Positions 5,068-27,338 of a stretch of 41,731 nt of DNA are shown piece after piece. Numbering within the stretch: position 1 is the first letter of the stretch; every line of letters starts with the position of its first letter. Below the pieces are notes generated by a model, which saw only the letters and a program-made list of their open reading frames with translations, did no database searches and was not told the DNA's origin. The position numbers were made by a program, and so were the translations under genes. Origin of the DNA: Patescibacteria group bacterium (GTDB taxonomy: Bacteria > Patescibacteriota > JACMRA01); the NCBI GenBank assembly GCA_038256935.1, contig JBBSJV010000001.1:1-41731 (forward strand), read 5' to 3'.

Positions 5068-5248
5068 TGTCATCTCGAAGGCACTGAGAGATCCCATACG
5101 GTGGCTGGGTATAAATCAATTAAGGCGAAAAAAAACGTGGTGAACTTGTTTCAGTATATTTGAAAAAGTATCAACAAAAAATTAATGACCTTACTCTTGA
5201 ATTCAACCATGCAATACTAAGGGGTTTCTCGCTTTGCTCGAGATGACG
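5068..5248. repeat. Inverted pair of TGTCAT-stem-loop-ATCCC elements
   Basis: Left end TGTCATCTCGAAGGCACTGAGAGATCCC (5068-5095). Right end GGGGTTTCTCGCTTTGCTCGAGATGACG (5221-5248), in the opposite orientation. Confidence 0.75.
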
Positions 5249-8360: not shown

Positions 8361-8427
8361 TAAAGAATATTAAAGTCCATTTAAAATAAGTCTTTAGTGG
8401 TATACGATTTTGTAATTGTGGTTAATA

Positions 8428-8502
8428 TGTCACCCTGAATTTATTTCAGGGTCTTTTAATTATACAATAGAAGAAAGATTCTGAAACGTGTTCAGAATGA
8501 CA
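8428..8502. repeat. Inverted pair of TGTCA(C/T)-stem-loop elements (best-preserved copy)
   Basis: Left end TGTCACCCTGAATTTATTTCAGGGTC. Right end GATTCTGAAACGTGTTCAGAATGACA. The two stems differ but each is self-complementary. Confidence 0.8.
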
Positions 8503-8541
8503 AAAACCTTTGAATACATTGAATGTACAGCTGCTACAAAT

Positions 8542-8657: not shown

Positions 8658-8710
8658 ATGTATTTTTACTGTAAGAGATGCTTTAGTTATTGTAAAGGGG
8701 GGGGGTGAAG

Positions 8711-9081
8711 TTGGCGTTTAGCTAGTCTGGATCAAGTCCAGCCTGTTCTAGCTGGTACTTACGTACCTGCCTTTCTCTCAATCGCCGTGTGGCTCAAGTC
8801 GGGCCGCAATTCGGTTGGTTCATTCTGAACCTAGCACCCTAGCTCGCCGCATGGCATCGCCGTGTGGCTTTGGGATCGGAGCAAGTCCGATCTGTTCATG
8901 CTTAGCTTAGTACTTCTCTCAGTCGCCGTGAGGCTTGGGGCAAAATAAATTTGCCTGAGTTCTAGCTAATGCTTACGCATTTGCCTTTCTCTCAGTCGCC
9001 GTGAGGCTTGGGGCAAAATAAATTTGCCTGAGTTCTAGCTAATGCTTACGCATTTGCCTTTCTCTCAGTCGCCGTGAGGCT
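8711..9081 (-). repeat. Tandem array of five structured units (two identical 73-mers plus three diverged) filling the spacer between two tRNA-Arg genes; candidate ncRNA or processing modules
   Basis: Units on plus-strand coordinates: 8711-8795, 8796-8869, 8870-8935, 8936-9008, 9009-9081. All share TCGCCGTG(T/A)GGCT. Hairpin stems differ between units but stay paired. Confidence 0.8.
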
Positions 9082-9159
9082 TGGTGCAATCGGCAGGGAT
9101 CGAACCTGCGACCTTCTGGACCGCAACCAGATGCTCTAAATCCACTGAGCTACGACTGC
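9082..9159 (-). tRNA. tRNA-Arg (anticodon GCG), CCA encoded
   Basis: Hand fold: GCAGTCG TA GCTC AGTGGATTTA GAGC A TCTGG TTGCGGT CCAGA AGGTC GCAGG TTCGATC CCTGC CGATTGC A CCA. Confidence 0.85.
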
Positions 9160-10750: not shown

Positions 10751-11962
10751 TTAATTTTTAACATCTGCTAATAAAATAACCTCATCTTTCAATTCTGATA
10801 TAGAAGCATTGAGTAAGTCAAAATCTGATGTTTTTATTTCCTGCATAAAGTTCTCTAAAGTATAGCTAGAATAGTTGTAGACGGTTATTTCATCACCTGA
10901 AAACAGGTTTACAGTATAATCATTACCTTCAATATGAAATTCTAAATCAATATCTTTGATCATTTTAGCACTTATTATCCATGAATCAATCTCTTGATTA
11001 AGCCCCCTTACAAGTTCATAATCTTCTTTTTCAAAGCCAATTTCATCTAATAACCAGGTGGAATGCTCTATTATGTATTTATTTTGCATATGCTCATCCA
11101 TATCTGCATATTCATTTTTGTATTTTAGATAGGTATTTATCCACAAATAATCATCTTTATCAAAACTACCAGAAAAATTATTTAAGGTTTTCTGCTTATC
11201 CAATGAACTGCCAATAGTAGAACCTAAAAACAGCACTAAGTTGCAACTTTTTTCAGTTGAGGAAGACTTATTATAAAATAAAATATCTCTAATCATGTTC
11301 TCGTCGATATCAATTACATGATTATTTACGGGTACATTTATATTCCATTTTGAAAAGTTTTCTTCTAAGAGATCTAGTATGTCTTTACTTATATCAATAG
11401 CTGAATATGTAATGTTTTTATCATGCTTTTGAAATTTTTCAATGACTATTTTTGCTAAAAAACCGTTACCAGGACCAACATCTACAAGATTAATTTTATC
11501 ATACCCCTTTAAGCGCATAAGGAGATAATCAAAGCTAACATCCATGATTTCAAGGCCCCTCTCAAGCTCTGAATCTTCGAGACTTAATAAATAGTCACTA
11601 AATGAATTCCATAGCCCAGCACCTTTATCAAAATAGCAATATTTATGAGGGATAATTTTATGACTTCTTATTTTAGTCATGATTTCAATGATTTGAGAAA
11701 CAGTGAAGATTTTGTAGATGCGAGCCTTAACCACTATTTTTCTATACGACAATTTATTTTTAAATTTTTGGGCGTTTTGTTTTAACTTCTCTAATTCATT
11801 ATTATTTTGAAAATTATCAATAATATAATACTTTCCCTTACTTTCCTGTAGAACCAAGTTATTCTTTTTTTCTAGAGCAGCTTCTATCCACTTAGCAACA
11901 GTAGGGTGAGAGACGCCGAATTTTTTGGCAACCGTGTATGGTTTGAGAGGTTTTTGTGTCAT
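10751..11962 (-). CDS. Fusion protein: N-terminal HTH plus an EgtD-like (histidine-N-alpha-methyltransferase fold) SAM-dependent methyltransferase
   Basis: HTH: YTVAKKFGVSHPTVAKWIE. Methyltransferase: YFDKGAGLW, LVDVGPGNG, YSAIDISKD, and FLGSTIGS (compare EgtD FLGSTIGN). Confidence 0.65.
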   Translation of the reverse strand: MTQKPLKPYTVAKKFGVSHPTVAKWIEAALEKKNNLVLQESKGKYYIIDNFQNNNELEKLKQNAQKFKNKLSYRKIVVKARIYKIFTVSQIIEIMTKIRSHKIIPHKYCYFDKGAGLWNSFSDYLLSLEDSELERGLEIMDVSFDYLLMRLKGYDKINLVDVGPGNGFLAKIVIEKFQKHDKNITYSAIDISKDILDLLEENFSKWNINVPVNNHVIDIDENMIRDILFYNKSSSTEKSCNLVLFLGSTIGSSLDKQKTLNNFSGSFDKDDYLWINTYLKYKNEYADMDEHMQNKYIIEHSTWLLDEIGFEKEDYELVRGLNQEIDSWIISAKMIKDIDLEFHIEGNDYTVNLFSGDEITVYNYSSYTLENFMQEIKTSDFDLLNASISELKDEVILLADVKN

Positions 11963-13909: not shown

Positions 13910-14848
13910 ATGTCACTGCAAAAAATAAATCTAAATCTAAACGATAAAGCTATTTTGGAGCAACTTAGTCAAAGACAGATTTATCTCAAATCACCTGCTG
14001 GGAAAAATGCTAAGGTCATCAAATCTCAGCTTGAGCTGGGTAAACAAAATTCCTTGATTTACCTACAAAGAAGTAGCCTGCAGACTCGCCTTTCTATGTT
14101 GGAGGAGAATAATCTCTATAAAACTGTCCAAGATTTAGGGCAAAAATTGTCTATCCAAAAAGTTCCAAGAAGAATTGAGTGTTATGATATTTCCCATTTA
14201 TCAGGTAAATTTGTGTACGGTTCCATGATTGTATTTATGGATGGTAAGCCCAATAAAAAGCTGTACAAATTATTTAAAACCAAAGAACAAAATAACGATT
14301 TTGCCAACCACAAAGAAGTTTTATCGAGAAGATTAAATAGGGCTTTGGAGCAAATTCAAACTGGAGTAGATAAGGGTTGGGGATTGCCTGATTTGATCAT
14401 AGTTGATGGCGGTAAAGGTCAATTATCCTCTGATATTGAAGTGCTTAAAGAGCATTACCAGATTTTTAAAGACAATAACCTTGCTTTTCCAGTAGAAATT
14501 TGCGCCCTTGCCAAAGAAGAAGAGTTGATTTTTGTGCCCAATAACCCTGACCCGATCAGATTAAATGGTGATACCTTAGCGTTAGTGCAAAGAATCAGAG
14601 ATGAAGCTCATCGTTTTGCCATCACAAACAATCGAAAGGCTAGACTTAGAACCATCGAAAAAAGTGCTCTTGATGATATAAAAGGTGTGGGCTCAAAAAC
14701 TAAGATTAAACTTCTTACTATTTTTGGCTCTGTTGCAAATCTTGCTGATAGTTTAGTCAATAATCCAGAGCTAGTGTATGAAGCTGTAGGCAAAAGTGTA
14801 ACACAAAAACTAAAAGATCACTTTGCTGTTAAAACTGAGAAGGGTTAG
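13910..14848 (+). CDS. uvrC: UvrC C-terminal half only (RNase H-like 5'-incision domain plus (HhH)2); no GIY-YIG or UVR domains
   Basis: RRIECYDISHLSG, PDLIIVDGGKGQL, IRDEAHRFAITNNRKAR and LDDIKGVGSKTKIKLL. The 312-aa product corresponds to roughly residues 340-610 of E. coli UvrC. Confidence 0.8.
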   Translation: MSLQKINLNLNDKAILEQLSQRQIYLKSPAGKNAKVIKSQLELGKQNSLIYLQRSSLQTRLSMLEENNLYKTVQDLGQKLSIQKVPRRIECYDISHLSGKFVYGSMIVFMDGKPNKKLYKLFKTKEQNNDFANHKEVLSRRLNRALEQIQTGVDKGWGLPDLIIVDGGKGQLSSDIEVLKEHYQIFKDNNLAFPVEICALAKEEELIFVPNNPDPIRLNGDTLALVQRIRDEAHRFAITNNRKARLRTIEKSALDDIKGVGSKTKIKLLTIFGSVANLADSLVNNPELVYEAVGKSVTQKLKDHFAVKTEKG

Positions 14849-15066
14849 TTTTTAATCAACCACTTGTGCTGGCCAAGATCGATCATAATCTTCTCTCGAT
14901 GCCTGTTAAAGAGTAAATACAAAAGTAACGATAAAGGTACGCTGATTAGAAAAAGAATGTAGATTTCTCCGCTGGTTTTATAAAAATACCTTTGATCATA
15001 AGCACGAATGTACTTGTCATAAAAGTTTTGTAGGTATTCCAAAAAGCTAAGCCAGAATTGGTCCAT
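14845..15066 (-). CDS. Small single-TM hypothetical protein
   Basis: 73-aa ORF with the hydrophobic segment IYILFLISVPLSLLLYLLF. Its 3' end overlaps the uvrC-like gene by 4 nt. Confidence 0.35.
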   Translation of the reverse strand: MDQFWLSFLEYLQNFYDKYIRAYDQRYFYKTSGEIYILFLISVPLSLLLYLLFNRHREKIMIDLGQHKWLIKN

Positions 15067-15771: not shown

Positions 15772-15847
15772 TTTTCTGGCTAAATAGTGTTTGGCTTTTT
15801 AGAATAATACCAAAGGCTCTAGACTAAAACTTCTTGTCTAAGTATGT

Positions 15848-15983
15848 TGTCATATCGAGCAAAGCGAGATATCCCATAGTGTAGCAATAAAAGCATTAAC
15901 AATGGCGAATAAACCAAGTCCTTACAAAGCATGACTAGATGCCCTGCCACCGCAGAGGATCTCTCCTTGAAGCCATGATGACA
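15848..15983. repeat. Inverted pair of TGTCAT-stem-loop-ATCCC elements
   Basis: Left end TGTCATATCGAGCAAAGCGAGATATCCC (15848-15875). Right end GAGGATCTCTCCTTGAAGCCATGATGACA (15955-15983), which is degraded. Confidence 0.7.
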
Positions 15984-16036
15984 CTTGTGTTAAGCTGAAA
16001 ACCTTAGGTTTAACTGATTTAATAATTGAAATATTT

Positions 16037-16507: not shown

Positions 16508-17104
16508 CTAGTTTTGGACAAGATTTAGATACCCTCCTGCTACAAAATAAGATGATCCATTGATACTAACATTGTGCATCAGATGGTAACTCTTTCCTAC
16601 TTTGCAGATTGTAAAACCTCCCCCTTCAGCTGGGTAAAGCTGTGGGTCAAATCTAAAACTATTAGCTACCGTTGAGATGCGGTTGCAATTAGAATCTCTG
16701 AGATTAAGACCTCTAGCAGCTAGAACAGTTGGAGTAACACTGGTATTTACTGGACGTTTTGCAAAAGCTTCATTTAAACCAAAGACTGGCTTTGTGTATT
16801 GTAAGGCCGCGTAGTAATTTGACTCTCCATTAGTAGGGCTATTAAATGAGAACTCTTCTACTTTTGTTAAGGTGTAGTTTATCCCATTGATATTACAATT
16901 GATGGTAGGAGCTGAAGGGGTTTTTCTTGCGATGTCACCGGCTTTTAAAGTCGTTATAATTCCACAATTTTGGTTGCGAAGATTAAGTCCTTTGGAAGCT
17001 GTGACAATAGCTAAGTCTGTTGTAGTTTGAGCATTAGCTGAGGTTGGTAAAAATCCAACTGCTAAAACTAGTGTAGTAAGTGTGAGTGCGATGCGTGTAA
17101 ACAT
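16508..17104 (-). CDS. Secreted protein with two SH3b-like Cys-containing modules
   Basis: Signal peptide ending in ANA-Q. Repeated GLNLR(N/D)xNC modules. Paralogous to 17181..17771. Confidence 0.6.
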   Translation of the reverse strand: MFTRIALTLTTLVLAVGFLPTSANAQTTTDLAIVTASKGLNLRNQNCGIITTLKAGDIARKTPSAPTINCNINGINYTLTKVEEFSFNSPTNGESNYYAALQYTKPVFGLNEAFAKRPVNTSVTPTVLAARGLNLRDSNCNRISTVANSFRFDPQLYPAEGGGFTICKVGKSYHLMHNVSINGSSYFVAGGYLNLVQN

Positions 17105-26047: not shown

Positions 26048-26121
26048 GGGGTATGCTTTAGCTTCCCGTTTTAGGAAGTCTGAGAAGCACTAGGGGATTT
26101 CTCAGTACCTTCGAAATGACA
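26048..26121. repeat. Repeat cluster: a GGGGTATGC..CTTCCC unit, a long imperfect hairpin, and a GGGGAT-stem-loop-ATGACA element
   Basis: GGGGATTTCTCAGTACCTTCGAAATGACA (26093-26121) is the reverse-orientation homolog of 5068-5095. GAAGTCTGAGAAG pairs imperfectly with TTCTCAGTACCTTC. Confidence 0.7.
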
Positions 26122-26171: not shown

Positions 26172-27338
26172 CTACTCAAACTGACTAATAGCTTTGTCTA
26201 GTTTTTGGAAAAATACTTTTGCTGAAAATAATTTTGACTGCTTTACACAATCTTCTTTCATGGATTTTACAAGGTCCTGATCCAAGTGCTTGATAGCTGC
26301 TGATAGGTCTTTGACTGTGGGGTTTGCTGGTAGCATCAAGCCGTTTTTCCCAGCCACTATTGTCTCCAATAATCCACCTTCCCGCACCCCAATTACTGGT
26401 TTTCCAGCTGCCATAAGTTCTAGTTGAGTCATACCAGCGTCCTCGTTTTCAGGGACATATATTCCAGCAAAACAGTTACCTACAAGGTCTGCTAATTTCT
26501 CATCACTGACTCTACCCAAAAATTGGATATTAGTTAGATTATTATCTTTTATAAAGTCTTTGACATAACCTTCTAATGGTCCTCCACTACAAATTACTAG
26601 CTTTTTATCGGGGTTTAATTTGAAAGCCTCCATGATCAAAGCAATTCTTTTGATATGCTCAAGCCTTGCGTAGCTAAGGTAGTAATCTCCATCAGAAATA
26701 TATTTAAATCGATTGATATTTACAGGAGGGAAAATGGCTTCATCGGCTGTGATGTTAGTGTATTCCAAAACTCGTTGCATGATGTTTTCTGAATTAGTAA
26801 TTTTGTAATCCATTACCTCGTATGCCTTTATCCATTGATTGAGTATCCAAGTGGCAAAGAAATTAAAAAATGGTCTTAAAATTGGGTTAAACTTGGCTGC
26901 AACCTTCTTTTTTTGATCAGTAGCGTATCTTGGTGGGCAATTACAATACCCGATAGTGTTTACTTTTTTATCTAGTCTTTGAGGTAGAAAATAAATATTT
27001 CCAAAATTAAAAATCACTAAATCGTAGTTATTGAGACCCTTTACTTTTGGGTTAAACTTTAGGTTCCATATTCTTTTAAAAACCCTCCAAACTGGTATTC
27101 TACTCTCTTCATGAAGATAATATACTTCACCCTCTGTCTCAAAAAGCTCTTTAGCAAAAGGGTTATTGTCATCACCACCATACCAAGTTTTGACATCCAT
27201 ACCACCAACCCAAAAATCACAACCAAGATGTTTTTTGATATCAATCATCATCCTTTCTGACCCCCCAATAGCACTTCCCATTAGGTAAAATTGAAAGATG
27301 GCTATTTTAAGTTTTGGTTTAATTGTTTTGGCTTTCAT
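26172..27338 (-). CDS. Glycosyltransferase family 4 (GT-B)
   Basis: C-terminal EDAGMTQLELMAAGKPVIGVREGGLLETI (E-x7-E type motif). Confidence 0.85.
   Translation of the reverse strand: MKAKTIKPKLKIAIFQFYLMGSAIGGSERMMIDIKKHLGCDFWVGGMDVKTWYGGDDNNPFAKELFETEGEVYYLHEESRIPVWRVFKRIWNLKFNPKVKGLNNYDLVIFNFGNIYFLPQRLDKKVNTIGYCNCPPRYATDQKKKVAAKFNPILRPFFNFFATWILNQWIKAYEVMDYKITNSENIMQRVLEYTNITADEAIFPPVNINRFKYISDGDYYLSYARLEHIKRIALIMEAFKLNPDKKLVICSGGPLEGYVKDFIKDNNLTNIQFLGRVSDEKLADLVGNCFAGIYVPENEDAGMTQLELMAAGKPVIGVREGGLLETIVAGKNGLMLPANPTVKDLSAAIKHLDQDLVKSMKEDCVKQSKLFSAKVFFQKLDKAISQFE

Follow-up and report, generated by a model that had tools for sequence, protein, structure and literature searches.

Repetitive extragenic palindromes (REPs) tagged with CGTC were defined as short hairpins that follow a CGTC, TGTC or CCTC tag and precede a consensus CCA tail, with stems of 8-9 bp that open with an A-T pair and loops of 4-5 nt (Di Nocera, De Gregorio and Rocco 2013, BMC Genomics 14:522; PMC3733652). 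They occur mostly as 'HH' dimers, in which the tags lie outermost, with heterodimers predominating in CGTC-2, and they are extragenic, residing between unidirectional or convergent genes; no transposase gene was tied to them, and the survey found no Y1 transposase gene flanked by them (PMC3733652). Here we describe a family of tagged hairpins in a Patescibacteria group bacterium, based on a window of 41,731 nt (assembly GCA_038256935.1, contig JBBSJV010000001.1, positions 1 to 41,731) and on the genome assembly to which it belongs. One inverted doublet of these hairpins lies in the piece shown above. The units are probably CGTC/TGTC-tagged REP hairpins akin to CGTC-2 that are one and the same as the Ssn-related motifs (SRMs), with the nuclease Ssn as their partner. 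The family belongs to the same class as dRS3/NTS of Neisseria and RPE-4/-6 of Rickettsia. It adds a very dense, low-GC member to this known pan-bacterial class and does not amount to a novel kind of element.

Ssn is a single-domain GIY-YIG nuclease of about 94 aa that binds NTS/dRS3-type hairpins exclusively as single-stranded DNA (ssDNA) and cuts the strand a few bases upstream of the hairpin (Chenal et al. 2025, Nat Commun 16:2388; PMC11893778). Binding depends critically on the C that follows the palindrome, and cleavage is influenced by the 3 nt upstream. At least one SRM is found near 71% of ssn genes, and 42% have such motifs on both sides (PMC11893778).

The assembly (G000; C-numbers denote its contigs, other G-numbers its relatives or members of a phylum sample) comprises 1.36 Mb in 127 contigs. 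The hexamer TGTCAY alone is not enriched in the window (43 occurrences vs 35 +/- 5 expected), and the signal resides in its combination with a hairpin: GTCAY followed by a stem of at least 5 bp in a 24-nt register occurs 220 times genome-wide vs 35 times in a shuffled genome, and other registers remain at background level. A search with the exact pattern GTCAYNCTGAAYTNRTTTCAGNRTC returned 152 genomic copies vs none for the reversed control, and the inclusion of variant stems raises the family to 201 units with 65 distinct sequences, about one per 6.7 kb. The dispersed hairpin family that an initial annotation of the window had proposed from the sequence is thus real. Each unit measures 24-25 nt and consists of a (T)GTC tag, an 8-bp stem, a 5-nt loop, the return stem and then a C. 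GTC itself is invariant by design of the search; the base before it is T in 184 of 201 units (92%), C in 11, A in 5 and G in 1. The C directly after the palindrome is present in 198 of 201 units, though for the 24 D-type units (see below) it was a selection criterion. Stem position 1 is an A-T pair in 176 of 177 units, position 2 is T-A (105) or C-G (70), and position 3 shows full compensatory covariation (C-G 108, A-T 28, T-A 24, G-C 6); the stems vary yet stay complementary, as described in the initial annotation, and selection therefore acts on the hairpin itself. The start TGTCA(T/C) given there needs to be read differently, since the conserved tag is (T)GTC and the A that follows is the first base of the stem. 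Likewise, the proposed ATCCC(C) tail holds for two subtypes, C and D, in which it runs on as CCCCTGTGGTGG.

Four types can be distinguished. Type A (GTCACCCTGAATTTATTTCAGGGT) is present in 63 copies, 56 of them identical, and type B (GTCATNCTGAACTYGTTTCAGNAT, with the tail CTTTTC) in 96 copies. Type C combines the type B hairpin with the tail CCCCTGTGGTGGCT (18 copies), and type D, with about 24 copies, carries the type C tail on a deviating hairpin with a 5-bp outer stem and an 11-nt loop. The 5-nt loops of the other types read TTTAT, CTCGT or CTTGT. Across the family the tails are CTTTT, CTATT or CCCCT rather than CCA. The C and D units on many contigs share a conserved tail of 12-14 nt, CCCCTGTGGTGG(CT), seen in the window at 660-671, 730-741, 5093-5104 and 15947-15958 and often followed by an A/T-rich stretch that ends in ..AATCAAT. 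The dominant arrangement is a convergent A+B heterodimer with the tags outermost, of which there are 46, mostly 72-74 nt long and with a variable spacer of about 25 nt. This agrees with the initial comparison to REPs and their mosaic arrays, in that the family occurs mainly as inverted pairs downstream of genes; the TGTCA...TGACA ends, which had been taken for the terminal inverted repeats (TIRs) of a MITE (miniature inverted-repeat transposable element), are in reality the orientation tags of two separate hairpins.

The connection to Ssn emerges from the genes that these hairpins enclose. The assembly harbours four small GIY-YIG loci, two intact and two pseudogenes, with open frames of 66-109 aa and PF01541 matches at E 3e-16 to 2e-11. 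One intact ssn gene (106 aa, C26:14608-14925) lies between an A unit at 14604-14627(+) and a B unit at 14992-15015(-), and the other (90 aa, C101:8-277) is cut by the contig start and has one unit nearby. The pseudogenes on C110 and C33 are bracketed by inverted units as well, of types A and B on C110 and of type D on C33; the D-type bracket suggests that a second pairing of Ssn and hairpin exists. In the C26 gene, the reverse complement of the A unit supplies the final seven codons (DPEINSG) and the TGA stop; the C110 pseudogene likewise ends in a type A unit. The C26 module has a doublet on each side, and the spacer of the doublet at C26:15035-15102, CTATTAAGTTTTGGGGTAAG, is what results when both inner module ends are fused; the doublets accordingly resemble modules without their gene. 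Among loci fetched at random from other taxa, one (L110) likewise has an ssn homologue between two units. A tblastn search for ssn relics inside the D-type pairs of the window found none.

These loci resemble the described Ssn systems in that a small (90-106 aa) single-domain GIY-YIG gene is placed between inverted GTC-tagged hairpins, and the repeats resemble SRMs in the conserved GTC before and C after the palindrome as well as in the co-occurrence of gene and repeats across genomes. They differ from the systems of Chenal et al. in an AT-rich inner stem (CTGAA) that falls outside the degenerate motif, and in an ssn 3' end and stop that lie within a hairpin; their nuclease activity is predicted. 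Co-occurrence was tallied by hand over 401 genomes of the phylum, with Ssn homologues accepted at E <= 1e-8. The 25-mer pattern is carried by 68 of these genomes, with G000 at the top (152 copies; the next have 78, 69 and 62), and an Ssn homologue is present in 50 of the 68 vs 96 of the 333 genomes without the pattern. Outside the family of G000, 19 of the 20 genomes with at least six copies have an Ssn homologue, and the twentieth has divergent small GIY-YIG genes.

We propose that each unit would act as a 24-25-nt ssDNA hairpin in which the 5' GTC tag and the C after the stem give orientation, and that the small GIY-YIG Ssn encoded in hairpin-ssn-hairpin modules would be the partner of these hairpins. 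The local Ssn may cut the AT-rich hairpin variants, the abundant 72-74-nt inverted doublets would be gene-less versions of the module, and Ssn or the module may spread them. Ssn is the best-supported partner.

Several observations weigh against this proposal. The published function of Ssn is the restriction of transforming ssDNA in Neisseria, not the movement of repeats (PMC11893778). The window contains no ssn gene, and none was found in G015 (69 copies, 85% complete) or in the closed genome G017 (10 copies); the same holds for G007 and G022. Conversely, 96 genomes have an Ssn homologue but not the pattern; other variants of the hairpin are presumably present in them. The co-occurrence overstates the support, since the genomes are in part related and hence not independent. 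Types A to D fail the published SRM motif HGTCWYN(0-2)YYVSBRHN(0-5)WNVSBRGN(0-2)RNCYNB, which has ten matches in the genome, all to the CCCCGTAC-stem variant; the failure is due to the AT-rich inner stem and not to the architecture. Lastly, the local GIY-YIG proteins match no NCBIfam family and have no relative in the PDB, and their assignment to Ssn (CDD family cd10448) is putative.

The likeness to CGTC-2 is close. The units share with it an unpaired (C/T)GTC tag, an 8-bp stem opening with A-T, a 5-nt loop and a short tail that starts with C; they form mostly heterodimers with the tags outermost, reside between unidirectional and convergent genes, and have near-identical sequences in Sulfurovum, sphingomonads and Bacteroidota. 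The supplement of the survey lists an intragenic peptide of Sulfurovum CGTC-2, RHSELVSGS (PMC3733652), that is compatible with CGTCATTCTGAACTTGTTTCAGGATC. The units differ in that the tag is TGTC in 92% of cases and the tails are CTTTT or CCCCTGTGGTGG instead of CCA, and in their host, a tiny-genome, Patescibacteria-like lineage from a phylum absent from the survey, with its density of one unit per 6.7 kb. A scan across bacteria, with one genome per species and the identical 25-mer pattern, located it in sphingomonads, there with a CGTC tag and a CCA tail, and in Pedobacter, Chitinophaga and Flavobacteriaceae with the same A+B heterodimer. The pattern was also encountered in Gastranaerophilales, Treponema, Nitrospirota, Elusimicrobiota, a Rickettsia endosymbiont and several lineages of the candidate phyla radiation (CPR). 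Similar GTCAT hairpins in other environmental bacteria, mentioned in the initial annotation, can thus be found in many lineages.

Within the window, to whose full length the following coordinates refer, direct reading and the hairpin scan together identify the eleven copies counted originally: seven units of 24 nt are intact, in one the stem is shifted, and three copies are degraded. The doublet in the piece shown above is a 73-74-nt heterodimer with its tags outermost: a type A unit at 8428-8453 (+; intact core 8429-8452), its hairpin followed by CTTTTAATTA, a variable spacer without strand of about 25 nt (8454-8476), and a type B unit, GTCATTCTGAACACGTTTCAGAAT, at 8477-8502 (-; core 8478-8501). 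As ssDNA, the stretch 8425-8505 is predicted to fold (-13.7 kcal/mol, z = -4.8) into a three-way junction, with TGTCA:TGACA closing it. A 66-bp doublet with tags at the outer ends is formed by the type A unit at 518-543 (+; core 519-542), which reads TGTC-ACCCTGAA-TTTAT-TTCAGGGT-C and shares its 24-nt core GTCA...GGGT with the 56 identical genomic copies, and by a degraded type B copy with a mutated 5' arm, read directly at 559-583 (-; core 559-582). An intact type C unit at 730-766 (-; core 742-765), with the tail CCCCTTTGGTGG at 730-741, and a second, degraded type C copy at 660-694 (-; core 672-693), with its 5' arm partly deleted and the same tail at 660-671, constitute a direct repeat. 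The initial annotation was right that four loci are convergent pairs with the tags outermost; the two copies within 660-766 are not convergent.

The two other pairs in the window are of type D. One spans 181 bp and consists of the unit at 5068-5104 (+; core 5069-5092, 5-bp outer stem and 11-nt loop, tail CCCATACGGTGG) and its convergent partner at 5210-5248 (-), whose core, GTCATCTCGAGCAAAGCGAGAAAC at 5224-5247, is the one with the shifted stem and is likewise followed by a tail. The other, of 136 bp, pairs the unit at 15848-15886 (+; core 15849-15872, tail CCCATAGTGTAGCA) with a degraded convergent partner at 15947-15983 (-; core 15959-15982, tail CCTCTGCGGTGG) and has no significant structure overall (15845-15986, z = 0.2). 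The gene at 26172-27338(-) is followed, 52 nt downstream of its stop, by a lone type D unit at 26087-26121 (-; core 26097-26120, tail CCCCTAGTGC). No unit was found downstream of the orthologues of this gene at 13 loci in relatives, which is weak evidence because the flanking protein of the family relatives is just 42-49% identical. Identical flanking proteins are not on record, and a metagenome scan yielded one relative with 48% identity. An Rfam scan of the window reported tRNAs only.

Apart from being candidate substrates of Ssn, the hairpins are the target of a transposable element. A larger composite repeat occurs in at least 14 identical copies at contig ends, where it breaks the assembly. 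It terminates in TGTAGATGTTAATTATTTTAATGACAG... and, read on the opposite strand, in TGTAAGTGTCAATTTATTCGCTGACAATTTTAATCT; both match the ends of a full insertion sequence (IS) of about 1.05 kb at C28:14109-15155, continued in C9:1-142, which encodes a 324-aa transposase of the IS481 family (NF033577, 170 bits, E 7e-50). The element measures 146 nt and its termini are about 80% identical over 34 nt to the IS ends; on account of these shared termini the composite is a MITE whose core is an A+B doublet, with the TIRs about 36 nt outside the hairpins. The terminal motif has 36 matches, 34 of them genuine termini, of which 17 lie directly against the first 8 nt of a unit (GTCAYCCY|) and 15 against a whole tag-less hairpin, and complete MITE copies pair one terminus of each kind. 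A simple target duplication does not account for every copy: a perfect 5-bp duplication together with a rebuilt intact unit is seen in two of the six complete copies, and one (on C18) has inverted flanks, which suggests later recombination between copies. Clean evidence comes from the closed relative G017, in which an IS of 67% identity is present in eight identical copies of 1080 bp, each inserted in a TGTC hairpin just 3' of the tag (L156, L161, L163, L165, L167-L170); five of the eight have perfect 5-bp duplications (ACCCT in four, AGGGT in one), and seven rebuild an intact unit, in either orientation. The IS481-family IS and its MITE hence use the hairpins as a specific insertion target, and the MITE has multiplied recently.

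Insertion into REPs has been documented for ISs of the IS3, IS110, IS4, IS256 and IS5 families (Tobes and Pareja 2006; PMC1525189). Like IS1397 and ISKpn1 (IS3) or ISPpu9, ISPpu10 and IS621 (IS110) (PMC1525189), the present IS occupies one precise REP position in nearly all copies. It differs from these in belonging to the IS481 family, which is not among the five listed, in inserting just 3' of the GTC tag with duplication of the first 5 bp of the stem, and in having a MITE that carries two targets of its own; in the literature library searched, there was no report of REP targeting by the IS481 family. The TIR motif and the transposase were found only in G000, G007 and G017, and the IS therefore exploits the hairpins and is not their general mobiliser. 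IS-TIR-like sequence upstream, above the 99th percentile of controls, is present at about 59 of 157 A/B units, which makes the MITE a contributor to the record copy number; this DDE-type element demonstrably spreads some of the hairpins here. The copies in the window score at or below the control threshold for TIR-like flanks and for this reason are not classed as derivatives of the IS481-type MITE. The IS3-like rve genes on C6 and C54 were considered as movers and discarded as unrelated to the units. The stretches C6:2-451 and C54:9988-10383 are two halves of an IS3-family transposase at contig ends, which indicates a further multi-copy IS that breaks the assembly. Of the 254 contig ends, 15 have a unit within 150 nt, roughly fourfold the rate expected by chance, and hairpin repeats thus contribute to the fragmentation of contigs.

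What moves or maintains the remainder of the family can be read in several ways. One could regard all doublets as cores of the MITE moved by the IS481-family DDE transposase, with the hairpins serving as both internal sequence and target; the matching termini at C28/C9, the identical assembly-breaking copies, the A/B units with TIR-like flanks and the target duplications all fit. Such an origin is nevertheless improbable for the family as a whole, as about two thirds of the A/B units, nearly all C and D units and all window copies have no recognisable TIRs, G014, G015 and G023 carry 62-78 units without the TIR motif or the transposase, the same hairpins populate many phyla, and the hairpins came before the IS, given that it inserts into pre-existing ones. 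A second possibility, raised in the initial annotation, is that the units are REPs mobilised in trans by a REP-associated tyrosine transposase (RAYT), a Y1 enzyme with an HUH motif, and that the doublets correspond to REPINs (Bertels and Rainey 2011; Nunvar 2010; Ton-Hoang 2012), inverted doublets of tagged hairpins with a spacer. The resemblance to REPINs extends to near-identical copies around a few master sequences, to a layout of hairpin and tag like that of GTAG REPs, and to RAYT-like genes in the genome. The assembly has three Y1 genes, one IS200-like (C17) and two RAYT-like (C20:16528-17085, 75.6 bits, and C57:6041-6613, 62.8 bits against NF047646); the proteins of the latter two retain the HUH motif and a Tyr that aligns to Y115 of the E. 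coli TnpA-REP (PDB 4ER8), and seven of nine repeat-bearing genomes of the family have RAYT-like matches. Both genes, however, score below the family cut-off of 80 bits, and no unit is present within 600 bp of either; the 2013 survey likewise found no Y1 gene flanked by CGTC REPs (PMC3733652). The tag is TGTC rather than GTAG, and a phyletic association is lacking: Y1 genes track the repeats weakly (39 of 68 pattern-positive vs 147 of 333 pattern-negative genomes, hand tally), and PF01797 and NF047646 have no match in nine closed or near-complete genomes with 10-23 copies, including the single-contig G048 and G142. Since Y1 genes are common whatever the repeat content and these nine repeat-bearing genomes have none, RAYT is rejected as a required partner, and mobilisation by such an enzyme appears very improbable.

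The third Y1 gene (C17:11060-11545) has a different repeat of about 47 nt on both sides (C17:10760-11060 and 11545-11845), AGCCCTGAAAGGGCGAAACA...CACAGGGTG.AGCCCTGTGAAC. The locus resembles a REPtron built from another repeat family, perhaps the 68-nt one at positions 8658-9159 of the window. The C20 RAYT-like gene contains two in-frame, inverted, GC-rich GTAG-tagged hairpins (GTAGGGGCGATTTCGCAATCGCC) at 16660-16685 and 16935-16960. As a source of the present family these were rejected, as there are about five copies in the genome and none in 25 relatives of the family. TnpB and IS110 are absent from the assembly.

The placement of the units, determined on a simple map of open reading frames (ORFs) with 86% of the genome coding, invites an explanation that dispenses with mobility altogether, according to which the hairpins are plain intrinsic terminators or RNA stability hairpins. 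Of all units 95% (191/201) are intergenic; 40% of the clusters lie between convergent genes vs 18% of all intergenic gaps, and two thirds of the units share the sense of the gene ending upstream of them (120 vs 60). CTTTT directly follows 55 units, and the A unit of the central doublet was flagged as terminator-like (8432-8452). Yet an identical 24-mer at 56 loci with an oriented tag is unlike independently evolved terminators. The identical 146-nt copies in unrelated contexts, the nested insertions, the copies within ORFs and the 13 orthologous loci without a unit also speak against this explanation, which we find scarcely credible as an account of origin. A role as bidirectional terminators or stabilisers of mRNA 3' ends is plausible for the doublets, and termination is likely a secondary use and not the origin. 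A canonical type C unit with the tail CCCCTAGT resides at C72:3710-3733 within a 936-aa ORF (C72:1455-4265, minus strand), possibly as an in-frame intragenic insertion as reported for the same class of repeats elsewhere.

Returning to Ssn as the partner, its role may extend to movement. In a stronger version of the proposal the ssn cassette itself would be mobile and the doublets would be non-autonomous derivatives copied in trans by way of Ssn cuts, coupled to the DDE-type IS and its MITE. This combination we regard as tentative and rather unlikely. If true, Ssn would work in the manner of a transposase. Because the MITE targets hairpins and carries two of them, each insertion creates new targets; if the combined scheme holds, such target-making insertions may explain the highest copy number among the 401 phylum-mates sampled.

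For annotation, the repeats are best labelled as CGTC-REPs/Ssn-related motifs and not as MITE ends or RAYT REPs. Because the SRM motif does not capture the low-GC variants prevailing in CPR genomes, surveys based on it undercount the class. The IS481-family element, with its fixed position in the hairpin (8/8), adds an IS family to those that target REPs, and its MITE propagates its own target. In tiny genomes the set of genes that co-vary with the repeats is small, and here the analysis favours Ssn over Y1 transposases. Whether Ssn spreads its own sites may be approached directly from the hairpin-ssn-hairpin modules that lie next to their gene-less copies.

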